64,000 nt of DNA from an uncultured virus (IMG/VR IMGVR_UViG_3300032138_000963) (IMGVR_UViG_3300032138_000963), one strand, 5' to 3'. Positions 7,589 to 61,690 are shown, numbered from the stretch's first letter. Notes: generated from the sequence alone by a model not told the origin. A program made the numbers and translations.

Positions 7589-7762
7589 ATGGCTAAATCG
7601 ACAAAAGATGATGAAGCGACCAACAAGCTCCTGTGGATTGCCGGCGGCGCCGCTGTCACGGCGTTCGCCATGTACTACGTCAACAAGTCCCTCAATGAGC
7701 GTGAGGAGCTGAAGCGACTGAAGTACGCTGAGAGCCGTCAGCTCAAGGAGGGCAGCGATTAG
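7589..7762 (+). CDS. Small membrane protein (57 aa)
   Basis: GGAGG upstream; LLWIAGGAAVTAFAMYYV TM; fills the gap. Confidence 0.65.
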   Translation: MAKSTKDDEATNKLLWIAGGAAVTAFAMYYVNKSLNEREELKRLKYAESRQLKEGSD

Positions 7763-8794: not shown

Positions 8795-9403
8795 ATGGCA
8801 AAATCCGCACTACCCCTCATCGTTGGCGCCGGCGCGGCCGTCTTTCTTTTGATGCCAAAAAAGAAGAAGACGCCCGTAGTGAAAAAGAACGGCAACGGCA
8901 ACGGAAACGGCACGAAGACCGATCCGAACATCGTCATGTCCGGAACGAAATCCGAATGGGGATGGCGAGTGAGGAAAGAACCCGGCCAGCCAGGCTTCGC
9001 AGATCGATATTTCGGCGAGGTGAAAGACCCGGCCGCTGCGCTCACCTGGGAGACCGTGCACGACACCGGTCGCAGCAAGCCCGACGAGGCCAAGCTTCTC
9101 GCCTGGGAACGCATTGCCCAGGAGCTTGCCGACGAGGCCAGTCAGACGTTCAACTGGGAGCCAGCTCGCGCCCACAATGAGGGCAAGCTACGCGAGCAGT
9201 ACCCCGATGCGTCACTGAGCGTTCTCGACACCGGGTCGATGTCCAAAAATGGCGTGAAGTGCAATTGGGCCATCATGGACGTCCTTCCACCGATCGAGCC
9301 TGGCGCATACGCAGGGTTCGTTATCTGTCCGAAGACGAACGAGCAGATCAGTCGATTCGGCAACTCGATCGCCTCAATCAAGCAGGTACTCGAGATCACC
9401 TAG
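8795..9403 (+). CDS. Membrane-anchored protein (leader family)
   Basis: MAKSALPLIVGAGAAVFLLMPKKKK plus NGNG linker. Confidence 0.8.
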   Translation: MAKSALPLIVGAGAAVFLLMPKKKKTPVVKKNGNGNGNGTKTDPNIVMSGTKSEWGWRVRKEPGQPGFADRYFGEVKDPAAALTWETVHDTGRSKPDEAKLLAWERIAQELADEASQTFNWEPARAHNEGKLREQYPDASLSVLDTGSMSKNGVKCNWAIMDVLPPIEPGAYAGFVICPKTNEQISRFGNSIASIKQVLEIT

Positions 9404-11297: not shown

Positions 11298-12050
11298 ATG
11301 GCGAAAAAGACTTCAGCTCTCCCAATCCTCGCCGGCGGCGCTGCCGTATTGCTTCTCGCCGGCAAGAAGAAAAAGAAGAAGAGCAGCGGCAATGGCGGAA
11401 ATGTCCGGTGGGGAATCCGGGTGAGCCCGGACTGCGCCAAGGTTGATGTCGTCGACGTGAACCTCTTCCACAAGTTCATGTTCGGAGCCTTCAACGAATT
11501 GGTGAGTGCGGATCCGTCTCTCACGCTGATTCAGATGTCCGACGCCCTGTTCGGTGATATTGCTCCGAACTGCTCCGGGTTCCCTGAGGATCCCGAGAGC
11601 GCCGAGGTGGCCGAGCTGTACGCCATCATCGCGCGGAATGTCGGGCAGTTCATGGTCGCGGATCCGCGTGTGGATCTGACCATGGGGGCACTGATCGACG
11701 AGGCGACTCAGATCTCCTTCACCGACTGGTACCGAGCTTGGCGAAACTACCCGTCTTCGGATGTCCCGGAGGCGCCGGATAATCAGGTCTCATTCTCGAG
11801 CGACCTATCGACGTTCAAGGTTGGGTCGAACTGGTACGTGGATACGATTCTCCCGTTCGTGGGTGAGGCCGGCGAGGCTGGTCGACTCGAGACCGCCTTC
11901 GAAGATTTCGTGGGGAATCGCGGCGTGTTGGTTGGCAAGTTCGTGATGCCGATCGCAGAGCTTCCACAAGACAACGAGACTGTCGTCCGATTCCTCAATG
12001 AGCTGCAAGCCTCAATCCAGCAAGCTGAAAAGGAGATCGTTGGCGCGTGA
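11298..12050 (+). CDS. Membrane-anchored protein (leader family)
   Basis: Starts MAKKTSALPILAGGAAVLLLAGKKKKKK. Confidence 0.8.
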   Translation: MAKKTSALPILAGGAAVLLLAGKKKKKKSSGNGGNVRWGIRVSPDCAKVDVVDVNLFHKFMFGAFNELVSADPSLTLIQMSDALFGDIAPNCSGFPEDPESAEVAELYAIIARNVGQFMVADPRVDLTMGALIDEATQISFTDWYRAWRNYPSSDVPEAPDNQVSFSSDLSTFKVGSNWYVDTILPFVGEAGEAGRLETAFEDFVGNRGVLVGKFVMPIAELPQDNETVVRFLNELQASIQQAEKEIVGA

Positions 12051-12478
12051 GCCTACGTGAGGAATACGGCCACTTCCTCCTTCTCGGTGCCGGGCTTTTG
12101 ATGCTGGGCATGGCGAGTAAGCGCAAGCCGAGGAAGATGGAGGACCGGTCGGGGGAGAAGTGTGATCCAGATGAGGTCACACCCATGGGATACCAGTGCG
12201 GTCAGGTGCGCGGCGGATGGGAGCTGAGTCCCGAGCCCGAGCATTTCGCTGGCTTCGGCCCCTACATCAACCGGGAGAGCGTCGACGTGGCCCTCGCTCG
12301 TGTCGGCTTCCCAGATGGGAACCTCGCCGGATTTCAGGGGTACATGTCCTTGGTCTACGGGCGAGACCTCCGAAAGGATGGCGAGGTCGATGGCTCGAGC
12401 ATGCATGCCCTGCGCGACGCCGAGCAGATGCTTGGCCGGGATGAGTGGGTCTTTCCGAGAGGGGCGCAAACAGGATGA
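12047..12478 (+). CDS. Membrane-anchored protein with degenerate PG-binding-like C-terminus
   Basis: FLLLGAGLLMLGMASKRK; ALARVGF...LAGFQ...LRKDGEVDGSSMHAL. Confidence 0.65.
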   Translation: MSLREEYGHFLLLGAGLLMLGMASKRKPRKMEDRSGEKCDPDEVTPMGYQCGQVRGGWELSPEPEHFAGFGPYINRESVDVALARVGFPDGNLAGFQGYMSLVYGRDLRKDGEVDGSSMHALRDAEQMLGRDEWVFPRGAQTG

Positions 12479-12999
12479 GCGACGAGACTCCAGCTCAAAA
12501 TCCTCCGCCACCCAAGAGTAGTCCGCTCCTGGAGCCCGAGGAAAAGGGGATCGGCGATTACCTCATTCCTGGACTCCTCGGGGTCGCAGGTGCGGCGCTT
12601 TTGTACAAGTCGATGTCCAAGAAGAAGTCGTCGAATGGTGGCTCGTCGAGCAAGGTGGAAGCGTCCGACAACGAGGTCAAGTTCTCGAAGGGGTATTCGA
12701 ATTACGCCGTCGGCAAGGACTGGGAGGAGATGACGCTCGAGCCCTACCTCGCAGAGCAGGCTGAGGAGGGCAACCTCATCACGGCGGATTACGCCGACGA
12801 CTCGATGGTTACCGTCGAGATGATTCGGCCGTCCATGAAGGACAGTCGAGCGAAGACGCTTGCGGCATTTCGGTCTACCCACAAGGTCGGCACTACCGAC
12901 GGTGAGGTCCCCATTTCCAAACTTCCGAGCAAGTCCGGTGTTCAGAAGTTCAACGCGTGGCTCGACACTCAAGTCGAAAAGTTCCAGGAGGAATACTGA
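12475..12999 (+). CDS. Membrane-anchored protein (leader family)
   Basis: LIPGLLGVAGAALLYKSMSKKK; shares a domain with 11298 and 14510. Confidence 0.75.
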   Translation: MSDETPAQNPPPPKSSPLLEPEEKGIGDYLIPGLLGVAGAALLYKSMSKKKSSNGGSSSKVEASDNEVKFSKGYSNYAVGKDWEEMTLEPYLAEQAEEGNLITADYADDSMVTVEMIRPSMKDSRAKTLAAFRSTHKVGTTDGEVPISKLPSKSGVQKFNAWLDTQVEKFQEEY

Positions 13000-30753: not shown

Positions 30754-30790
30754 AAAAAAAAGAGGCGCCATAGTGGCGCCTCTTTTCGTT
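30754..30790. terminator. Bidirectional intrinsic terminator between the convergent arms
   Basis: aaaagaggcgcca-tag-tggcgcctctttt, with an A-tract upstream and a T-tract downstream. Confidence 0.9.
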
Positions 30791-35676: not shown

Positions 35677-35916
35677 CTAACACCCGTCAAACGGAGGCGT
35701 CGGGGTGTACTCTCCTTCCAGGAAGGTCATGCAGCTTTTGGGCGTGCGCCCCATCTCGTCGACACAGTCGAGCATGAACTTGGATCGCTCGAGCTGAAGC
35801 TCCTGGTTTTGAAGTTCTCGCTCAGCATCGCGGTCGCTCTGGGCTCGAAATGTCGAGTAGGCGAGCCCGAGAAGAAAGAGGAGCATGAGGGCGACGAGGA
35901 ATTTGGATTCTTTCAT
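35677..35916 (-). CDS. Small membrane-anchored or secreted protein
   Basis: Starts MKESKFLVALMLLFLLGLAY. Confidence 0.6.
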   Translation of the reverse strand: MKESKFLVALMLLFLLGLAYSTFRAQSDRDAERELQNQELQLERSKFMLDCVDEMGRTPKSCMTFLEGEYTPTPPFDGC

Positions 35917-36455
35917 GGCGCAGATTCTACCTCTTGGAGCTTCAGCTCGTTGCATATTGCGTCGATCTGCGCCTCGAATTGCTCGAGGGTTCCGTCGTTG
36001 GTGATGCGGTAGTCCCAGGGAAGATCTGCATGTGCTTCCGACTCATGCGTCGGGTCGTACTCGCAGCCTGGGCGCCGCACAGAGACGATGTGGCCGCCGA
36101 GCCCCTTTGTCAGCTCGGCGTGCTCGTTGGGGAATCGAACGTCCTCGATGACCAGCAGGCCGCCTGGGAGGGTGTTCTTCCAGGCGGTGAGCCAGATGTC
36201 GCGGTGGATCATCTGGCGTCCCCACTCGGTCCCCATCGTCTTCATCGCATGGCGCGGAGTTCGACCGCACAGCTTGGGCGTGGGGATCTCCTTCTCATCT
36301 CCGTAGACCTGCTCCCACGTCAGGCCGAACGCGACCATGAGAGCCTTCTTGATAGGGTCGGCGAATGCAGTTCGTGTGAACCCATACTTTCCGACAAGAC
36401 GTTTGGTGAGGGTGGATTTGCCGGACTGCTTGGGTCCGATTACGCCGATAATCAT
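35913..36455 (-). CDS. Deoxynucleoside monophosphate kinase
   Basis: IIGVIGPKQSGKST, FADPIK, TPRHAMKTMGTEWGR, IEDVRFPNE. Confidence 0.9.
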   Translation of the reverse strand: MIIGVIGPKQSGKSTLTKRLVGKYGFTRTAFADPIKKALMVAFGLTWEQVYGDEKEIPTPKLCGRTPRHAMKTMGTEWGRQMIHRDIWLTAWKNTLPGGLLVIEDVRFPNEHAELTKGLGGHIVSVRRPGCEYDPTHESEAHADLPWDYRITNDGTLEQFEAQIDAICNELKLQEVESAP

Positions 36456-37111
36456 TTGCCAAATTGATCTTTCGTGAGCTGAAGTCTCGAGGCAACGGGG
36501 CCGACCTGATCTCGATATCGACCCTTGTACAGCTCGATCGCTCCCATGGGCTTGAGGAAGTATGCCTGGCAGATAGGAGTGCCAGCGTAGACGCGGATGG
36601 GGTGGATGACGTGGATCTCCAGAGTGATCTGCCCTTTGAATCCGAGGTCGCAAAAGCCTGCGGTGACGTGAACGTGCAGTCCGAGTCTGCCAATACTCGA
36701 GCGACCTTCGACGATGGGTACGAATAGATTCGACCCGATGCATTCGATGGTTGTGCCGAGGTAGAGAATCCCCGGCCTCAGGATGATTCCAGTCTCAGGA
36801 ATCGGAAGCTCGAATGCGGGATTTTCCTTGCGCATGTCGAGTGGCTCGCTGCCGGATCGCGCGTAGACGGGGTGCTCTGGGCTCCCGGATCCCTCATCGA
36901 AGCGCCTGACGGCATTCTCGTAGACGAGCAGCTTGTCGCCCAGTCGCAGGTCGACTGAGTTCGGGCCGACGAGTTCAGGGTCGTAGGGATCGATGTGAAC
37001 CTCGTCCATCGTCGTGACGAGATCCTTGTCGAACGCCTTCCGCACGCCGTCCTTCACATCTTCGAGTCCGGCGGTGACGCGTGCGCGTATTTCAGGGCCT
37101 GTGAGAATCAT
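36452..37111 (-). CDS. dcd: dCTP deaminase
   Basis: PNSVDLRLG, EGRSSIGRLGL.VHVTAGFCDLGFKGQITLE, YKGRY..Q. Confidence 0.92.
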   Translation of the reverse strand: MILTGPEIRARVTAGLEDVKDGVRKAFDKDLVTTMDEVHIDPYDPELVGPNSVDLRLGDKLLVYENAVRRFDEGSGSPEHPVYARSGSEPLDMRKENPAFELPIPETGIILRPGILYLGTTIECIGSNLFVPIVEGRSSIGRLGLHVHVTAGFCDLGFKGQITLEIHVIHPIRVYAGTPICQAYFLKPMGAIELYKGRYRDQVGPVASRLQLTKDQFGK

Positions 37112-38297: not shown

Positions 38298-39086
38298 TTA
38301 CGCGAGGAAGTACTTGGTACCCCGCGCCTCTCCGCACTTGTCGATCTTGTCGTTCTCGAACAGATCGAGAAGCAGCGGCCGAACGGCGTCGGCGTCGCCG
38401 CCGATTTCATCGCGGATCTGCTTGCTCGACATGGCCGAGTCCTCATCTTTCGCCTTGTTGCTACGAAGGCAGGAGAGGATTCCCTTCTTCGAAACATCGT
38501 CTCCGTCACCAGACTTCTTGCCCTTGCCGCTGGACTTCTTCTTGCCCTTGGACTTGGACTTCGACTTGGACTTCGACTTGGACTTTTCATCGGAGGACTT
38601 CTTCTTCTTGCCCTTCGACTTCTTCTTGTCCTTGTTCTTCTTGTCCTTGTCCTTCTTCTTCTTGGCGCCCTTCTTCTTTTTCTTGGCAGGCTCCGGGTCG
38701 TCGTCGTCGAGGTCGTCGTCGTCGTCGTCGAACTCATCGTCGTCGTCGAGGTCGTCGTCCTCTTCCTCGTCATCGTCACCAGCGGGCTCGTCGTCGGCTG
38801 GTGAGGGGGCTGATGTGGCCGGCGATCCGGTTGCGACAGACCCGGTGGTGACGGCAGCGGCCAGCTCCTCGAGCGTGAGACGCTTGAAGATCTCCAGCAT
38901 GATGTAGTCACCGTCGTCGTCCTCCTCGAGCGCGTCGAGGATTCCCCCAACAGATTGGCTCGAGTTCTCACAGACGGTCTTGAGCAACGCATCGCGCGCC
39001 TGGGCGACCTGATTGTCCTTGAGCTTTTCGAGGAAGGGGTTCGCCTTCTTCGGCTTGCTGCTGCTATCGTTTTCTTCGTCTGACAT
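38298..39086 (-). CDS. Putative DNA-binding protein with acidic and basic tracts and C-terminal winged helix
   Basis: D-run then K/S-run; SSKQIRDEIGG.....L..L....I...GEARGTKY. Confidence 0.7.
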   Translation of the reverse strand: MSDEENDSSSKPKKANPFLEKLKDNQVAQARDALLKTVCENSSQSVGGILDALEEDDDGDYIMLEIFKRLTLEELAAAVTTGSVATGSPATSAPSPADDEPAGDDDEEEDDDLDDDDEFDDDDDDLDDDDPEPAKKKKKGAKKKKDKDKKNKDKKKSKGKKKKSSDEKSKSKSKSKSKSKGKKKSSGKGKKSGDGDDVSKKGILSCLRSNKAKDEDSAMSSKQIRDEIGGDADAVRPLLLDLFENDKIDKCGEARGTKYFLA

Positions 39087-39122: not shown

Positions 39123-39734
39123 TCATTTGGTTTTGGCTTTTGGCCTTCGAGGCGCCCATATTTTGACGCCCCATCTTTGATACGTGAAGACGTAACCGAA
39201 TACGTCGTTCAGAAAAATCCTGGACCTTGCGTAGATACCAGGCGAACTACTTTCTCGTGGTCCTGCCACGTTGAGGATTTCGATACTTCGTGTGACTTCA
39301 CCTTCCTCGACCATGGTTTCGCAGATCCATCTCACTGCTTTCGGAACCGTGTACGACTTTGATGGATCGAACAATCGATACGGCTTGCCCAGCCTCTGAG
39401 CCGTCTTGATGGTGAGCTTGGTGCCTGGACCAAGAACTCGCCCCCCTCCTTGGAATCGGAGGATCATGGTCGCGTCCGAATCCGTGATATTGCGAAGCGT
39501 GCGGGATTTGTAGTCCCGACTCTGGGCGTGTTCCTCGAGTCCGCATCCTAGCCGATCTGAGTTGAAATAGCGATCCGGAATCGCGCCGTCTTCTGCGAGG
39601 CGACCCCTGGGAACGCATCCTCCCCAGGAATATACGAGCCTGTAAATCGCGCTGTCAAGCGCTGCCCGATCGACGCCTGTTTGAGCGCCGGAGATGATTC
39701 TTTTGAGGCCATTCAAGAGTGCGGTCTTCTTCAA
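39123..39734 (-). CDS. SLOG-fold putative molybdenum-carrier-like protein
   Basis: IISGAQTGVDRAALD, GGCVPRGRLAEDG, RTLRNITDSDAT, LNVAGPRES; start uncertain. Confidence 0.85.
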   Translation of the reverse strand: MKKTALLNGLKRIISGAQTGVDRAALDSAIYRLVYSWGGCVPRGRLAEDGAIPDRYFNSDRLGCGLEEHAQSRDYKSRTLRNITDSDATMILRFQGGGRVLGPGTKLTIKTAQRLGKPYRLFDPSKSYTVPKAVRWICETMVEEGEVTRSIEILNVAGPRESSSPGIYARSRIFLNDVFGYVFTYQRWGVKIWAPRRPKAKTK

Positions 39735-40293
39735 GGTCGAGTACGTCCGCGAGCAGGAGGGAAAGCTCCGACCCGCGATCTTCGAGCGCGCGGTTCACGA
39801 TGTTTGTGCTGAATCTTACGGTTGTGTGGTCGCATCCAAGAACTCTTGCAATCCGGTAATAGGAGAACATTCCGGTCGACCAGGTCAGCCATAGGCAGAG
39901 CCTTCTGGCTGCGACGGGCCCCCTCGCTCTGCTGCCGGTCAGTATATCGGAAGGTGGAATATGGGTCACCATGGAAATCGGAAGAGCAGCCCTCCACAAA
40001 AACCATTGGAGTTTGAATTCGTCCTGGAGCTTACCTATGCTTCGGTTAGCGTTCAGCTTGATGGTCGCAATATCGTCCTCGAGCTTCCGGAGTGCGGCTT
40101 TGCGTGATCGAAGCTTCTCGATGAAGTGGATGTGACTGCAACCTGCGCGGAGCTTTTCTGCGTCGATCTGCATTTGCAGTTCAACGATCCGGACCCGGGC
40201 CATGTGTCTGAAGATGTTCGGGCACTCGAGTTCAGAACTCATCGTCCCCGTCGTATCGGAAGTCGCTTCGCTCATCGATTTCCTGTTCGACAA
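39655..40293 (-). CDS. Protein with DnaA C-terminal (domain IV)-like HTH
   Basis: DILTGSRARGPVAARRLCLWL......SYYRIARVLGCDHTTVRFS. Confidence 0.75.
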   Translation of the reverse strand: MSNRKSMSEATSDTTGTMSSELECPNIFRHMARVRIVELQMQIDAEKLRAGCSHIHFIEKLRSRKAALRKLEDDIATIKLNANRSIGKLQDEFKLQWFLWRAALPISMVTHIPPSDILTGSRARGPVAARRLCLWLTWSTGMFSYYRIARVLGCDHTTVRFSTNIVNRALEDRGSELSLLLADVLDLEEDRTLEWPQKNHLRRSNRRRSGSA

Positions 40294-42169
40294 GTCCCTT
40301 GCCGGTCATCTCGAAATACATCTCCTTGGTCGCGTCGCCGAACCGATTCTTGCCCTCGCACCCGAGCGAGCGCATTCGGCTCCGCTTGGATGGGGACATG
40401 AAGCTCAGGACAACATCGACGTGGTGCTCGAGCGCTTTCGGCCCAGCGATATTCCCCTTCTTGTCGACGTGGGAGACGATGATGACGGCGATGCCGGATC
40501 CCTCTTCGTCTCCCACACCCTTGCACCACTTGAGGAAATGGTGGCCAATGGATTTCACCTGAGTGATCGATCCGGGAGGCTTCTTGCATTCGTCGACGGC
40601 AACGGTGCTCACGGAGTCGATGACGAGAACGGATACGCCAAGCCTTTCGGCCACGAGGCATATTCGGTTGACGCTTTTTTCCGGCAGTAGTAGTAGGTTG
40701 TCGTGTTCGCACTCGAGCCTGCCAAGAGCTTCGCCGATTTGGTCGGCGCTTTCCTCTCCGCTTGCGTAAAGGATTTTGGCGCCCGGATTCGCCTCGCAGA
40801 TGTTGTAGCAGACCTGCCTCGCAAGGGTGGATTTGCCAATCCCTGGGAAGCCTCCGAGCAGGACGATAGACCCGGCGACGAGCCCCCGTCGCCCCTCCTT
40901 GCCGCCGAGTAGCCCGTCGACGCCATCCATGCCGGTGGACATGCGCTCGTACTCGACAACTTCAGCAGCAGCTGACGTCGATGTCACGACTCCAAGGTCG
41001 TCGAAATCCTCCTCATTCGCTTCGGCTTCGCCATCGGAATAGCGCTCCTGAATCTCTCGCTCGTCAGCCTCTTCGTGCTTTTCTAGGTTGTCGAGCCACC
41101 GAGACTCCATCGAGGTCGCCACCTCTCGAGCTGCCGTATCGTCCGAGTCATCGTAGTGCCCGAGCAAGGTTCGGGTATCCTTGTGACCCGTAGATTTCAT
41201 GACCCGCCTCGGATCCGCCTCCGCCTCGAGGCTGTCGGTGGCGTGGAGATGTCGGAAGCCGTGTGGAGTGAGCTTCTTCTTCGTCGCCGCCTCCCTACCG
41301 ATACCTTCGATGATTCGTTGGGCTGACCGAATTGAAAGGCGTCCGCTTCCACGCTTGGCGCGGTCGAGGGAGATCATGATCGGACCCTGAGCCCGACCTC
41401 GGACCTCTAGCCACTCCTCGAGCGCCTCGAAGGTTTCCGGCCCCACAGGCCGCCAGACATATCGTGAGACAGACTCCCCCTTCCCTTTCCACTTGACTCG
41501 GAACCGTCGACTTTCGAAGTCGATGTTCTCCAGGTCGAGGGAGATTGCCGAGGAGATTCGGACCCCCATGAACGCGAGCATGTAGACCAGGAATCGATTG
41601 CGCATCGATCCGCGACCCTCAGCTGTATTCACGACACGGATGATGCGCCGAAACTCGGCAGGGCTTGGGCCGCTGGTATCTGTGACGCGACCACCCTTCA
41701 CGTTCTTGACGTCGAGCTTCCATTCAACCCACCCAACTCGTCGGGCTGCGTCGACGAACCAACGCATCGCCGCAAGGCGCACGTTGATCGTGTTCGGAGA
41801 AAGCTCGAGGTCTTGCTCCATCCACATGATGTATTCCTCGACGAGAGTCGTGGCCTCCATGTAGGAAAGAACGATCAGTCGCGCGACGATGTTCGAGACC
41901 TTGGAGTTGATCCTTTTTAGCCCGAGGTATTTTCCAAAGTGCCGAGCCGCACTCTGGTAGCTGCGCTTTGTCTCATCGCTGAGGCGATCCCAGTGTCGCT
42001 TGAACCGTCGCTGAGCCTTCTCGTTCCATCCCTTGGCGCTGCGAATTTCGCCGCGCTCTTGCATCTTGGCAAGGTCGGTCTGCTTGTCCTCGAGCTTGTC
42101 TTGGACGAAGGAGTCGCTGTACCAGGGCGAGAAGATCTCAGCCCCGGACATGTTTTTTGGCCTGGCCAT
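40232..42169 (-). CDS. Tyrosine recombinase fused to a RadA/Sms-type ATPase domain
   Basis: GVRISS, KGKG, HGFRH, GH...HY catalytic set, then GFPGIGKST, YASGEES, VIDS, AGPKALEHHVD, KNRFG. Confidence 0.9.
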   Translation of the reverse strand: MARPKNMSGAEIFSPWYSDSFVQDKLEDKQTDLAKMQERGEIRSAKGWNEKAQRRFKRHWDRLSDETKRSYQSAARHFGKYLGLKRINSKVSNIVARLIVLSYMEATTLVEEYIMWMEQDLELSPNTINVRLAAMRWFVDAARRVGWVEWKLDVKNVKGGRVTDTSGPSPAEFRRIIRVVNTAEGRGSMRNRFLVYMLAFMGVRISSAISLDLENIDFESRRFRVKWKGKGESVSRYVWRPVGPETFEALEEWLEVRGRAQGPIMISLDRAKRGSGRLSIRSAQRIIEGIGREAATKKKLTPHGFRHLHATDSLEAEADPRRVMKSTGHKDTRTLLGHYDDSDDTAAREVATSMESRWLDNLEKHEEADEREIQERYSDGEAEANEEDFDDLGVVTSTSAAAEVVEYERMSTGMDGVDGLLGGKEGRRGLVAGSIVLLGGFPGIGKSTLARQVCYNICEANPGAKILYASGEESADQIGEALGRLECEHDNLLLLPEKSVNRICLVAERLGVSVLVIDSVSTVAVDECKKPPGSITQVKSIGHHFLKWCKGVGDEEGSGIAVIIVSHVDKKGNIAGPKALEHHVDVVLSFMSPSKRSRMRSLGCEGKNRFGDATKEMYFEMTGKGLVEQEIDERSDFRYDGDDEF

Positions 42170-43395: not shown

Positions 43396-43845
43396 CTACT
43401 CGTCGCCGTCTTCAGCGTCAACCTGACGGGCGGCCAGTTGGGCGGCGTAATCGTCGCATATTTGCGCTGTGCGTGGGCTCATGCCGCCGCTGCTGCTCGC
43501 CGCCGCCGCCTTCTTCTTGCCTGCCTTCTTGGCGGTCTTTTTGGGCGCCGGCTTTGCAGCCTTCTTGGGCGCCGGCTTTGCAGCCTTCTTCGCAGCCTTC
43601 TTCGTGGCCTTTTTGGCGGTCTTCTTCTTGGCTGCCTTCTTCGCCGGCTTCTTCTTGGTCGCCTTCTTCGCGGTCTTCTTCTTGGCTGCCTTCTTCGCCG
43701 GCTTCTTCTTGGTCGCCTTCTTCTTCGCAGCCTTCTTCTTCGCGGTCTTCTTCTTGACCGTTCTCTTGGTCGCCTTCTTGGCAGTCTTCTTCTTCGCCGC
43801 CTTCTTCGCGGTCTTCTTCTTGGTCTTCTTCTTGGTCTTGCTCAT
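43396..43845 (-). CDS. Histone H1-like Lys/Ala-rich protein
   Basis: KKAAKKKTAKKATKK repeats. Confidence 0.85.
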   Translation of the reverse strand: MSKTKKKTKKKTAKKAAKKKTAKKATKRTVKKKTAKKKAAKKKATKKKPAKKAAKKKTAKKATKKKPAKKAAKKKTAKKATKKAAKKAAKPAPKKAAKPAPKKTAKKAGKKKAAAASSSGGMSPRTAQICDDYAAQLAARQVDAEDGDE

Positions 43846-44369
43846 CGTCCTCTTGCTCCTGTGACGTTAGCCCAGGTGATCCCTCGGTGAATATCCGAGA
43901 CAGCCTGTCTGGACACGCCGAACCTGTCGGCGATTTCCTGTTGGGTGCTTTTACCCTTGAGGCGATAGATCTGTTTTGCATGCTTGCGGATCAGCTCAGC
44001 TTGGCTGTTCCGTTCGCCGACCTGGTCGGTGCCGTGACGATGTTTGTCGAGCTTGTTGTCGAGGTAGGTTCCGTACTCGAGGTTGGAGAGCTTGGGTCTC
44101 CACGTTTTCCCGTCCTTGTGTCGGACGAGGCGGCCTCGAGCGGGGCCAAGGAATGCGTGGGCGACGATGATGTGGACTCGCTCGACCTTTTTCTTTCCGG
44201 CTGAGGTTTGCAGCGTGACCCGGATGTATCCATCCGTTCCACGCCTCGTTTTCATGAGCTTCGGTTTGCCGCCAGCCTTCCAGCTGCGCAGTCGACCAAG
44301 CGTGCTGACGTCGTAGTCCCTGTATCCCGGGACCTGACGCCATCGCTCCTTAGTCGACTGCCGAGGCAT
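43842..44369 (-). CDS. NUMOD4/HNH homing-endonuclease-like protein with C-terminal HTH
   Basis: WRQVPGY..YDVSTLGRLRS, VHIIVAHAFLGP, VRHKDG....LSNLEYGT, QQEIADRFGVS. Confidence 0.85.
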   Translation of the reverse strand: MPRQSTKERWRQVPGYRDYDVSTLGRLRSWKAGGKPKLMKTRRGTDGYIRVTLQTSAGKKKVERVHIIVAHAFLGPARGRLVRHKDGKTWRPKLSNLEYGTYLDNKLDKHRHGTDQVGERNSQAELIRKHAKQIYRLKGKSTQQEIADRFGVSRQAVSDIHRGITWANVTGARGR

Positions 44370-51725: not shown

Positions 51726-51765
51726 AAAAAGGAAAGGGCCGCATGAAGTGTCCCATGCGGCCCTT
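51726..51765 (-). terminator. Intrinsic terminator
   Basis: aagggccgcatg/catgcggccctt stem followed on the - strand by tccttttt. Confidence 0.75.
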
Positions 51766-59499: not shown

Positions 59500-59924
59500 T
59501 CTCTCCGTTCGCGTTTTTCGATCCAGGTATTTGCCTCGGATGCGATCTCTTCATCTGACATGTTGGCGAGCTTCTTCTTGCAGCGCCTTGCATGCTTCGT
59601 ATTTCGTACGACGTGGCGCTCCATTTCGGGGCCGTCGATATCATCCTTACCGGTGCTCTCCTTGAGGCATTCGAGGAAAACGACGACCTTGTGCATGCCT
59701 GAGAGCTGCTCTTTCGCCTCATGCATGTCGACCCCAAGCTCCATGATCTCCTCGACGTCCAGCGTGCCCTCGAGTCTGTCGGCCGCCTTGAAGTCTTCGT
59801 CGATGTCCGCCTCTGGCGCCTTCGTTTCGAGGGGTGGAGACTCTCTGACTGCGGGCTCTGGGTATTCCTCAGGGCCGGAAGGTCCGCATGCGGAAAGAAG
59901 TATGAGAATCGAGAGTCGCTTCAC
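59496..59924 (-). CDS. Putative lipoprotein
   Basis: GTG start; MKRLSILILLSAC lipobox. Confidence 0.65.
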   Translation of the reverse strand: MKRLSILILLSACGPSGPEEYPEPAVRESPPLETKAPEADIDEDFKAADRLEGTLDVEEIMELGVDMHEAKEQLSGMHKVVVFLECLKESTGKDDIDGPEMERHVVRNTKHARRCKKKLANMSDEEIASEANTWIEKRERRE

Positions 59925-61690
59925 TGGTTGGCCTTCGCGTGGATGAGTTTGATGACCATCGCCGCCGCCTGTCTCTTGGCCAGCTTCTTCGACGCCTTCG
60001 GCGGGGATTTGACGGAGAAGTCCAATGCTTCGCAAGCGACGGTAAACGTGGGCTCGTGGTCGGAGCCTCCATCGCGGAGTGATTCGTAGGTCGGAAGCTC
60101 GGCACCGATACCCTGGCAGTACTCACTCAGCTCACCGACTGGATTGTCGGATTGCCGAGATGGAAGCGGTCGCTTCTCTTTGGCTTGCTCGGCAGCCTCG
60201 GGCCACGGCGGCAGTGTCTCGTCGGCGAACTTTGCTAGCGCCTCGACGACCGCTCGTTGCTTGGCGACCTTGCTGCTTGGCGCCTGCACCTTGGGCGATT
60301 CGACGCCGGGCTTCTTGAACCAAACTTGCACCGTGTGGACGATGGCGTGATCGGATCCTCCTCGCTGAACCTTGTAGCTCGGCTCGCCCCAGCCGTCTGT
60401 TTGTGATGCGATCGCTGCAATGGATATCGCCTTATGCGGATGCTCGGCCAAGTGTTCGATAATAGCCTTACGAACTGGCGCCCACTCCGGCGTCGACTTG
60501 AACAGGATGAACTGCATGTCGACAAGGGTTGCCGCGCCTTCCCGAAGCCTGCGCAAGAAGACCTCCGCAACGAAGGGATTGAAGCCCTCGCCTCGAACGG
60601 CGACCTTGACCACGCGCTCGAACTCTTTGTCCGAAAGGTGTGCGAGGTCGTCTTTTCGGATCGCTGATTCCGCTTGTCGATTCGCTCGCTCGAGCGCAGC
60701 TTGCGAGGCCTCTTTCGCCCTTGCTGCGAGTGTGGTGTTGATGTGTTCGGAGATCTCGTCGACCTCCGCAGTGCTGTAGAGGAGCTTGTTCCCTCCAACG
60801 AATGCGAGAACCTGGCGCTGAACGATGAGATCGGCGAAGCGCCGAATCGGCGATGTGCCGTGAAGGTACGCGGGAAGGTTGAGGCCGTAGTGACCTTTGA
60901 GCTTCGTCCCGTAGTTCGCCTTGTTCATCACCATGGCGAATTGCTTTCGCGCGGTGTCGAGGTCTGCGACTGGACCACGGAGCCCTAAGTCGATTCGCTC
61001 GAGCATCGCCTCTCGTTCTGGGGCAGCAGCTCGGGCCGTGTGATTCCTGAACGGTACGGGTATTTCGTTTTCGACGCAGAATCTCGCAAGCTCAGCATTG
61101 GCCAAGATCATCAGCTCCTGAACGATGATGTAGCCGAATGTTTCCTTGGTGTCTTTCAGGCGGCGAAGGTAGCCCTCTTCGCTCGTGACCCATCCAGTGC
61201 TCAGATCGTAGAGCACGAACGCTCCGGCCTTGCGTCGCTTTTCCATCAGCCGATCTGCCAGCCGGCCGAGGCGCGCGATTGCTGAGTGAAGCTCGTGGTC
61301 CTCGGCGTTGAGGATCCCAGGAATCTCCTGGTAGGTCAGCTGCCTCTTGCTGACGAGCGTGGACTCGTCGATGGAAACGAACTGCGGCTCGAGGTCGTGG
61401 TCCAGCCGGATTCGGATCGCCATCACGCGCCTCTCCTGGCCCTGAGTGATGGAGCACGCCGCCTCAGAGAAGCGTCGGGGCAGCATGGGGCGATTGCGGC
61501 CGCCAGCCATGTAGCTCGTCTCCACGCGCCTGTGAGCGGTCTCGTCGCTCGGTGAGCCCCTGGTGATGGCTGCTGCCACGTCCGCGATGCAGACCGTCAC
61601 CGTCCAGCCTCGCGCGTCCAGGTCAGCCCAGATTGCGTCGTCTCGGTCGCGCGTCGTCGAGCCGTCGATTGTGATTCCCTGAACGTCCAT
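59921..61690 (-). CDS. RNase II/R-family (RNB) exoribonuclease with two C-terminal dsRNA-binding domains
   Basis: ITIDGSTTRDRDDAI, VCIADV, ELMILAN, GHYGL...YLHGTSPIRRFADL; two dsRBD-like units ending SSKVAKQRA and SKKLAKRQAA. Confidence 0.88.
   Translation of the reverse strand: MDVQGITIDGSTTRDRDDAIWADLDARGWTVTVCIADVAAAITRGSPSDETAHRRVETSYMAGGRNRPMLPRRFSEAACSITQGQERRVMAIRIRLDHDLEPQFVSIDESTLVSKRQLTYQEIPGILNAEDHELHSAIARLGRLADRLMEKRRKAGAFVLYDLSTGWVTSEEGYLRRLKDTKETFGYIIVQELMILANAELARFCVENEIPVPFRNHTARAAAPEREAMLERIDLGLRGPVADLDTARKQFAMVMNKANYGTKLKGHYGLNLPAYLHGTSPIRRFADLIVQRQVLAFVGGNKLLYSTAEVDEISEHINTTLAARAKEASQAALERANRQAESAIRKDDLAHLSDKEFERVVKVAVRGEGFNPFVAEVFLRRLREGAATLVDMQFILFKSTPEWAPVRKAIIEHLAEHPHKAISIAAIASQTDGWGEPSYKVQRGGSDHAIVHTVQVWFKKPGVESPKVQAPSSKVAKQRAVVEALAKFADETLPPWPEAAEQAKEKRPLPSRQSDNPVGELSEYCQGIGAELPTYESLRDGGSDHEPTFTVACEALDFSVKSPPKASKKLAKRQAAAMVIKLIHAKANQ

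Follow-up and report, generated by a model that had tools for sequence, protein, structure and literature searches.

Our analysis of a 64,000-nucleotide stretch of DNA from an uncultured virus (IMG/VR IMGVR_UViG_3300032138_000963), the whole of which is referred to below as the window, revealed a gene in which a tyrosine recombinase and a motor of the RadA/Sms type are encoded as a single protein. The gene lies on the minus strand at 40232..42169 and its product (P0001) is 645 aa in length. This recombinase–RadA fusion is conserved in a clade of uncultured large phages, and the combination was not found in the literature that we searched; its function is inferred here from sequence. Strand exchange by tyrosine recombinases passes through a Holliday junction, and RadA/Sms is a bacterial ring translocase that drives branch migration. 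The reading that we prefer, with a probability of about 0.4, is that the fusion protein is a site-specific recombinase with its own DNA-assembled ring motor, which would process the replicating DNA of the phage.

Domain architecture and the two active sites

The ORF listing and the translation gave one uninterrupted open reading frame (ORF) with an ATG start and a TGA stop, in agreement with an original prediction that had been made from the sequence alone. Met7 (42151) is a possible alternative start; the copy in the ESM Atlas begins at residue 7, and conservation across the fusion family starts at approximately residue 12 in an alignment of 31 sequences. All of the recombinase and RadA motifs named by the prediction were present in the translation, which carries GVR (R204), KGK (K228), HGFRH (H303/R306/H307) and GH...HY (H329/Y339), and also STG..GVDGLLGG, GFPGIGKST, SGEES, PGSITQV, AGPKALEHHVDVVL and KNRFG. 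Scans with Pfam PF00589 and NCBIfam TIGR00416 agree with the proposed full tyrosine-recombinase catalytic set and RadA-type ATPase core.

The N-terminal half is a member of the tyrosine-recombinase superfamily, as every defining feature that was tested was found. It opens with a helical extension (residues 1–60; 41990..42169, this and all following domain coordinates being on the minus strand), which contains no cysteine and carries conserved SPWY and RRF motifs; W16, R54, R55 and F56 are at least 90 % conserved among the 31 aligned fusions, and AlphaFold2 (AF2) predicts helices at residues 19–38 and 45–61. The core-binding (SAM-like) domain at residues ~61–150 (41720..41989) was recognized by Pfam, AF2 and Foldseek. 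It was matched by Phage_int_SAM_5 at residues 62–149 (E=3e-4, slightly under the cut-off of that family) and was modelled as a helical bundle at residues 65–144, with predicted local distance difference test (pLDDT) scores of 80–96. The catalytic domain occupies residues ~166–344 (41138..41674) and was matched by Phage_integrase (PF00589) at residues 172–344 (E=4e-23, 82.4 bits against a cut-off of 27.1). Its R204, K228, H303, R306, H329 and Y339 are invariant in 31 of 31 fusions, which are 35–85 % identical to the window protein, and in 10 of 10 sequences of a set that includes stand-alone relatives of the recombinase.

This half is a simple recombinase of the Xer/Cre type and is not an orthologue of any named Xer. 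Among structures in the PDB, its profile matches included XerA 4a8e (E=8e-20) and 5hxy, and the best NCBIfam recombinase models were XerA (E=1e-28) and XerC (E=6e-24). The equivalog cut-offs were reached by none of XerA_Arch (100.5 against 220 bits), XerC (84.9 against 335), XerD (64.8 against 330) and XerS (42.7 against 267). When the N-terminal half was folded alone, Foldseek returned only two-domain recombinases (XerA, IntI4, Brujita Int, Tn1549 Int, Cre, XerH and XerD), and the matches to XerA, IntI4, Cre and XerH extended over approximately 300–350 alignment columns. The best PHROG match was phrog_1, 'integrase' (E=7e-35), and the ESM Atlas gave integrase clusters only, at 0.79–0.80, which is under the atlas's own reliability mark. 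No topoisomerase IB or protelomerase was seen in Pfam at E values up to 1, in the Foldseek matches shown or in 55 PDB sequence matches.

Beyond the catalytic Tyr, residues 345–397 (40979..41137) form in the alignment a conserved helix (ME.RWL) that runs into an acidic linker. E355 in this helix is invariant, and the length and sequence of the linker differ among family members. An acidic linker had been predicted at ~40960–41150; residues 345–400, which map to ~40970–41137, hold 18 Asp/Glu against 5 Lys/Arg. The AF2 model of the full-length protein had a mean pLDDT of 81 and confident domains, with a predicted template modelling (pTM) score of 0.43 for the whole chain. Confident domains with a low whole-chain score point to a recombinase and a RadA core that are independent domains, joined in the model by a flexible tether.

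The RadA/Sms-type helicase core, comprising the end of the clasp and the H domain, occupies residues 398–629 (40283..40978), which is the span matched by the NCBIfam model TIGR00416 (sms/RadA; model positions 64–280 of 454, E=1e-48). KaiC/AAA_25-type P-loop Pfam families matched residues 411–572. In the family-profile search, the PDB RadA entries 5lkm and 8rxc matched the motor at E=6e-62, and for the C-terminal module Foldseek ranked RadA 8RXC and 5LKM highest (root-mean-square deviation (rmsd) 1.8–2.3 Å, 37–38 % identity). On sequence grounds, the ATPase module is specifically RadA-derived, with 37–45 % identity to bacterial RadA across the motor. Walker A (GIGKST) lies at residues 443–448 and KNRFG at 607–611. 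Invariant in 31 of 31 fusions are G443, G445, K446, S447 and T448 of Walker A, E472, R484, D518 and S519 of Walker B, Q537, H567, G576, P577, E581, H582, D585, K607, N608 and R609, and F610 and G611 of KNRFG are at least 90 % conserved.

A HMMER alignment relates these residues to the numbering of Streptococcus pneumoniae RadA, with K446 corresponding to K101, E472 to E124, R484 to R136, D518 to D170, H567 to H213, K570 to K216, H582 to H228, K607 to K251 and R609 to R253. According to the structural work on this protein (PMC11612176), E124 serves as catalytic glutamate, the lining of the gamma-phosphate pocket includes H213 and H228, DNA is contacted mainly through K216, and the K251 'piston' and the R253 arginine finger act on the ATP site of the adjacent subunit; KNRFG is described as a signature unique to RadA in PMC5512693. 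The invariance of K607 and R609, the counterparts of the two trans-acting residues, suggests that the RadA module continues to act as an oligomer, because a domain active as a monomer would be under no pressure to retain them. The invariance of both active sites across the 31 sequences likewise argues that both activities are under selection.

Two domains of RadA had been predicted to be missing from the fusion, and both are. There is no cysteine among residues 1–453, and hence no RadA C4 finger; the chain ends 16 residues beyond the ATPase core, and hence there is no Lon domain. Accordingly, the TIGR00416 alignment misses the zinc-finger and Lon portions of the model, and no Lon or ChlI Pfam family was found in the fusion protein. 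The final residues, 630–645 (40235..40282), form a short tail that ends in Phe, with 8 Asp/Glu against 2 Lys/Arg; the tail is acidic in the close clade and rich in Lys/Arg in the distant members P0053–P0062. Although its motor is RadA-derived, the fusion is not a RadA/Sms orthologue, because two of the three defining domains are absent and the equivalog cut-off is not reached (166.3 against 403.05 bits). Nor is it DnaB, a topoisomerase IB, a protelomerase or a known defence protein. The Pfam DnaB_C family (PF03796) matched residues 428–524 only (E=0.0039, 17 bits against a cut-off of 27), NCBIfam DnaB models gave E values of 0.002–0.08, and no FtsK Pfam family was found in the protein. PADLOC matched the fusion only to mad8, at the level of the P-loop (29.6 bits, residues 432–550), and matched none of six neighbouring proteins.

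Distribution and history of the fusion family

The fusion is not peculiar to the window. Among the best 120 matches of a word-indexed search of 5.8 billion proteins, 62 were fusion proteins in which both halves were matched, at 35–100 % identity and 62–100 % query coverage; the other 58 were ordinary RadA proteins with zinc-finger and Lon Pfam domains, which matched only 30–40 % of the query. When one hidden Markov model (HMM) was used for each half, both near-complete domains were found in 69 of 331 collected proteins. An exhaustive HMMER search of 1.84 billion representatives at 50 % identity gave, in its best 150 matches, 8 fusions or fusion fragments, 5 stand-alone integrases of 314–350 aa and 137 proteins of RadA type only, and the family is therefore real but rare. 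Assemblies from ENA, JGI, NCBI and Logan all contribute members, the longest contigs being 221,287 (P0002), 220,029 (P0048), 216,561 (P0045), 193,405 (P0007) and 159,987 bp (P0057), and the gene adjoining the copy in the window is recorded on a contig of 168,626 bp.

The original prediction had cautioned that the gene might be a misassembly across the linker. An assembly chimera or a frameshifted gene pair is vanishingly unlikely, as at least 69 proteins from many assemblies and sources share the same junction while their halves co-diverge to 35 % identity, and as a single contig bridges the gene without joints; this conservation of the architecture across the family excludes both chance and misassembly. 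The contig in question, of 21,888 bp in the Logan assembly of run X1, spans the whole gene with no differences, although X1 may be the source sample and its assembly is thus not independent evidence. Run X2 held a small part of the 5' end only, at 90–99 % likeness.

Searches of described phages and viral contigs returned no comparable protein. None of 150 records in a tblastn search of GenBank phages covered at least 80 % of the query, and none of 19 loci in a family-profile scan of IMG/VR covered the recombinase half. In a Walker-A pattern scan of metagenome contigs, which was dominated by ordinary radA, the fusion was present in none of the 80 loci kept, 5 of which have an unrelated integrase gene elsewhere (22–24 % identity). 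A scan of 185,579 species genomes gave one locus, on a phage-like contig of a metagenome-assembled genome (MAG). The automatic names given to members at JGI are 'integrase' and 'integrase/archaellum biogenesis ATPase FlaH'. Searches of open full-text literature gave no paper with a relevant title or abstract, and the words 'helicase', 'ATPase' and 'fusion' are all absent from the main text of a tyrosine-recombinase classification (PMC8138268). Within the GenBank phage records, IMG/VR contigs and literature searched, the earlier statement that the architecture is undescribed therefore stands.

In a quick maximum-likelihood tree of the ATPase module, all 22 fusions fell on one side of a single branch, with a Shimodaira–Hasegawa-like approximate likelihood ratio test (SH-aLRT) value of 93. 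The tree is unrooted and set these fusions against 45 RadAs drawn at random from 150 full-length RadA-only matches, which are the best scorers against the fusion profile. The grouping of the fusion modules apart from the 45 RadAs suggests one old fusion event followed by divergence to ~35 % identity, and a single origin is probable.

The recombinase also occurs without the motor. Five stand-alone relatives (P0190, P0191, P0192, P0197 and P0238; 314–350 aa) share with the fusions the N-terminal extension, the catalytic motifs and the post-Tyr '...E.[KR]W' helix; P0190 and P0191 align from query position 17–22 onward, and the stand-alone proteins end in a short acidic tail at the point where the linker of the fusion starts. 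Relatives of this kind were found well inside three IMG/VR contigs, of 245, 97 and 78 kb, the first of which is rated 100 % complete. No RadA-like gene was found in any of these three large viral records, nor within ±8 kb of the stand-alone recombinase. Stand-alone recombinases without RadA suggest that the recombinase served an independent function in large phages, to which the motor was an add-on. A split-pair (Rosetta-stone) test was also made and gave no separate recombinase and RadA pair, as the large records with a stand-alone recombinase were without a RadA-like gene (0 of 3).

Some further features were seen in family members and in these records. Member P0025 (747 aa) has an extra N-terminal segment with CC...CxxC and basic residues, which may be a zinc ribbon and is absent from the window protein. 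A Cas12f1-like TNB domain (E=8e-13) occurs in a 572-aa protein of the 245-kb contig (L101, 18–1736, plus strand), whose gene adjoins that of an MT-A70 methyltransferase. The 'direct terminal repeat' (DTR) of the 245-kb record (G001; L120, L121) is only a 123-bp exact overlap with no palindromic site inside, and so the record is more likely a circular or permuted assembly, in which case the DTR label may not mark true phage ends.

Genomic context of the fusion gene

The window has a GC content of ~58 %, consists of two long same-strand gene blocks and contains no tRNA. The minus-strand block holds genes for a dNMP kinase, a dCTP deaminase, a cpYpsA SLOG protein, an HNH endonuclease, a methyltransferase, a GP88-family protein, a NUDIX hydrolase and a nuclease with RNB and double-stranded-RNA-binding domains (dsRBD), together with a DUF1353 protein that PHROG annotates as 'tail assembly chaperone'. 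The plus-strand block encodes a peptidoglycan-binding, endolysin-like protein, and no capsid, portal or terminase was recognized in it by sequence profiles or relaxed PHROG scans. Assignment of the window to a highly divergent large phage of a bacterial host is an inference that therefore rests on the other genes. A relative of the window was found as a MAG contig of 27,970 bp (L020), which is recorded as an uncultured Desulfobacterales bacterium. Approximately 21.5 kb of it, to either side of the fusion gene, is collinear with the window at 36–62.7 kb, and the contig showed no junction with host DNA.

Directly downstream of the fusion gene, and with a start that overlaps its 3' end, is a gene for a protein of 206–212 aa with a C-terminal helix-turn-helix (HTH) resembling domain IV of DnaA (39655..40275, minus strand). 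The HTH matched Pfam Bac_DnaA_C at E=4e-6 (27.2 bits against a cut-off of 31.5), and PF08299 is precomputed on all four homologues detected. The gene is syntenic in L020 at 11922–12527, and its homologues P0335 and P0333 are on contigs of 7,839 and 2,123 bp, which are the sizes of the contigs with fusions P0004 and P0019. The DnaA-domain-IV-like protein is a possible partner of the fusion protein.

Other genes near the fusion are recorded here in their own right. A cluster of dNMP kinase, dCTP-deaminase-like and cpYpsA (SLOG) genes (35913–37111 and 39123–39734, minus strand) may form a module for the nucleotide pool or for modification of DNA bases. Two genes downstream of the fusion, at 38298–39086 (minus strand), a 262-aa protein carries a long poly-Asp/Glu run and then a poly-Lys/Ser run, and a homologue with 45 % identity is present in the MAG contig (13078–13899). 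The HNH endonuclease (43842–44369, minus strand; phrog_59, E=3e-38) is 73 % identical to its syntenic counterpart at 7613–8134 of L020, and so looks resident rather than a recent homing insertion. At 43396–43845 (minus strand), a 149-aa protein consists almost entirely of Lys/Ala/Thr-rich repeats (KKTAKKA... units), which we take to be like histone H1 and the bacterial DNA-coating proteins of the AlgP type; by that analogy, it may be a DNA-condensing protein of the phage.

Further away, the gene at 59921–61690 (minus strand) encodes a 589-aa protein with an RNB domain of the RNase II/R type (E=4e-60) and a C-terminal double-stranded-RNA-binding motif. This is an unusual gene for a phage; it has a homologue with 49 % identity in a relative contig (L119, 7212–8900) and may act in host or phage RNA turnover. 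On the plus strand, three genes at 8795, 15416 and ~26686 open with the same 14-nt string, encoding the peptide M[AG]KSALPLI followed by a hydrophobic Gly/Ala/Leu stretch, which may serve three products of the presumed virion block as a shared signal or membrane anchor. A probable bidirectional terminator lies exactly between the convergent gene blocks, at 30758–30786, in the form of a perfect inverted repeat of 11 nt that is flanked by runs of A and T.

Proposed function, alternatives and comparison with known systems

In the reading that we prefer, the recombinase half would provide sequence-specific binding and strand-exchange chemistry and would thereby pick the place of action. The RadA modules, freed of their Lon scaffold, would assemble as an ATP-hydrolysing ring or spiral only on DNA, where the recombinase concentrates them. 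The motor would then pump DNA or migrate the junction, and in doing so activate the recombinase, set its direction or clear the product. The likely substrate would be the replicating DNA of the phage, through resolution of multimers or concatemers, cyclization or the removal of branches before packaging. The fusion would thus be a cis, single-chain counterpart of FtsK–XerD or RuvAB–RuvC.

What has been published on RadA gives this proposal a background. In PMC5512693 and PMC11612176, RadA is a pre-formed hexamer that the P (Lon) domain keeps together even when DNA and ATP are absent, the link to RecA is through the C4 finger, and the motor consists of the H domain with the clasp; the loading of the closed ring onto DNA is presented as an open problem, and RadA as a possible double-stranded DNA translocase comparable to RuvB, RecG and FtsK. 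Loss of both the Lon scaffold and the RecA-binding finger would fit a motor that is re-targeted by the recombinase and assembled on DNA. The original prediction had likewise proposed a recombinase coupled to a branch-migration or activation motor, in the manner of FtsK and XerD. That proposal fits the invariant active sites, including the trans-acting Lys and Arg of KNRFG, and the RadA-derived ATPase, but these do not separate it from a role as a replication helicase, given the DnaA-domain-IV-like neighbour and the DnaB/gp4-like order of domains.

Several observations weigh against our preferred reading. A recombinase synapse is a tetramer and a RadA ring a hexamer, so that the stoichiometries have no obvious match. 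No input of energy is required by tyrosine recombinases, and the stand-alone relatives do their work with no motor attached. The DnaA-domain-IV-like gene and the nearby genes of nucleotide metabolism fit a replication module as well, the succession of N-domain, linker and RecA fold is that of DnaB and T7 gp4, and the viral structures nearest to the full model are replicative helicases of superfamily 4 (SF4). Searches of repeats, palindromes and 12-mers gave no candidate recombination site, either close to the gene or in several copies across the window. A scan for lox/dif-like palindromes gave 10 matches in the window against 0–4 in five shuffles, the clearest being terminator-like hairpins at 30758–30786 and 51735–51764; none was near the fusion gene and none was syntenic in L020. 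The general repeats in the window were mostly coding low-complexity sequence, and the repeated 12-mers were all coding. No RNA run is listed as containing the stretch, and the context seen amounts to 64 kb of genome and one 28-kb relative contig.

The main rival explanation, which we hold to be unlikely, is a helicase that loads itself at specific sites and serves phage replication or recombination-dependent replication. In this view, the RadA-derived ring would be the working helicase, the recombinase domain an anchor or nickase that opens an origin-like site for ring assembly, and the downstream DnaA-domain-IV-like protein a co-initiator. The position of that gene, overlapping the 3' end of the fusion and syntenic in L020, speaks for this explanation, as do the dNMP kinase, dCTP deaminase and cpYpsA SLOG genes in the same strand block and a domain order like that of DnaB and T7 gp4. 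A module without Lon domain and zinc finger resembles a bare SF4 helicase domain, the best BFVD matches of the full model are phage DnaB-like and primase-helicase proteins, and gp4 is named as the closest structural paralogue of RadA in PMC5512693. The acidic C-terminal tail of the close clade, ending in Phe, is a further point in its favour. Proteins of the T7 replisome have similar acidic tails.

Set against this, the module is far nearer to RadA (37–45 % identity, KNRFG) than to any replicative helicase: DnaB_C gave only E=0.004, under its cut-off, and the helicase matches in BFVD are 11–21 % identical. Tyrosine recombinases leave a 3'-phosphotyrosine and a 5'-OH, and the helicase explanation is weakened because such ends provide no primer; we know of no replicon that a tyrosine recombinase initiates. 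The recombinase subfamily occurs without RadA in other large phages, where its role predates the motor. No other helicase was recognized in the 64-kb window, which favours a helicase role for the fusion, although this result covers the window only and about two thirds of the genome lies outside it.

A bolder reading is energy-coupled site-specific recombination, in which the tethered ring translocase would drive the choice of partner site, directionality or junction resolution. We consider this unlikely. In one form, a motor anchored at one site by the recombinase would reel in DNA until a second site arrives, giving recombination in cis by one-dimensional tracking. In the other, a single-polypeptide 'resolvasome' would move a Holliday junction to the core sequence and resolve it without nuclease or ligase. 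Either form, if true, would be a mechanism class undescribed for the otherwise cofactor-independent tyrosine recombinases.

It is improbable that the protein is the ordinary lysogeny integrase of a temperate phage with an accessory ATPase, for instance one that controls directionality in place of a factor of the Xis type. The best PHROG match of the N-terminal half is indeed 'integrase' (phrog_1), its fold matches include the Int proteins of mycobacteriophage Brujita and Tn1549, and the automatic JGI names say 'integrase'. However, the gene lies deep in a same-strand block and is collinear on both sides over ~21.5 kb of the 28-kb relative contig, with no host junction and no tRNA, although negatives of this kind are weak because metagenomic contigs seldom retain prophage junctions. 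The scan of 185,579 species genomes gave just one locus, and the MAG contig that carries it is phage-like; the longest contigs of the family cluster at 160–221 kb and are not chromosomal, and the recombinase is a simple one with no arm-binding domain. Among the uses that had been put forward earlier, integration is consequently the least favoured.

Still more improbable is a topology or repair device, either a type-IB-like swivel or nick-reseal module that travels with a translocase, by analogy with reverse gyrase, or a substitute for RadA that repairs phage DNA with the recombinase domain as a mere DNA-binding handle. The intact motor residues speak for such a device, but the recombinase HxxR box and the SAM-like core-binding domain are present, and a mere handle would not retain six invariant catalytic residues. 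The PDB matches on the recombinase half (to approximately residue 355) are site-specific recombinases, except for one chain with an unrelated name (9i5v_14), as are all fold matches shown for this half folded alone, and no Pfam family of topoisomerases or telomere resolvases matched at E values up to 1.

The meaning of the fusion depends on which of these readings holds, and the family is rare and unannotated either way. A replicative helicase with a recombinase-derived loader would represent a phage replication initiator of a new kind. A protein in which the two activities are coupled, as in our preferred reading, would offer a compact model for communication between translocase and recombinase and might yield a programmable recombinase gated by ATP. 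It would also bear on how a RadA ring reaches DNA, given that the fusion lacks the Lon scaffold and has gained a DNA-targeting domain.

Compared with bacterial RadA/Sms (S. pneumoniae, 5LKM, 8RXC), the fusion shares the H domain (37–45 % identity, rmsd ~2 Å) with Walker A and B, the catalytic Glu, both pocket His residues, the Lys of the DNA loop and KNRFG with its trans-acting Lys and Arg. It differs in having neither the C4 finger, the RecA-interaction module, nor the Lon-like P domain, the hexamer scaffold; a whole recombinase stands where RadA has its finger, and the fusions form their own branch against 45 bacterial RadAs. With XerA (4A8E, 5HXY), XerC/D, XerH and Cre it has in common the core-binding and catalytic domains and the full R-K-H-R-H-Y set, whereas it falls far under every Xer equivalog cut-off and has in addition a 60-residue helical N-terminal extension and a post-Tyr helix that runs into a linker and an ATPase. 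DnaB and T7 gp4, as two-tier SF4 helicases, resemble it in the succession of an N-terminal functional domain, a linker and a RecA-fold ring domain, but at 11–21 % identity only, and the N-domain of the fusion is a recombinase and not a primase or a primase-binding collar.

The likeness to RuvAB–RuvC is one of concept, a branch-migration motor joined to a resolver of Holliday junctions at preferred sequences. RuvB is an AAA+ protein and RuvC a metal-dependent nuclease, on separate polypeptides, whereas the fusion would resolve junctions conservatively by transesterification. FtsK, a RecA-fold hexameric DNA motor, activates XerD, and the FtsK–XerCD/dif system resembles the fusion in pairing a RecA-fold motor with an Xer-type recombinase; in the fusion the motor is at the C-terminus of the recombinase, and coupling between the two would follow by analogy. 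The family profile also matched PDB 5dcf ('Tyrosine recombinase XerD, DNA translocase FtsK', E=2e-13), an engineered chain that we take to be FtsK-gamma joined to the C-terminus of XerD. Unlike that chain, the fusion is natural and carries a whole motor rather than the regulatory gamma domain alone, and the motor is of the RadA type and not of the FtsK/SpoIIIE type. Cre, Xer and lambda Int are textbook enzymes without energy input, whose direction and timing are set by FtsK, Xis or accessory sequences. An old, conserved and natural fusion of a complete recombinase with a complete RadA motor suggests that a phage lineage has hard-wired such control into one chain.

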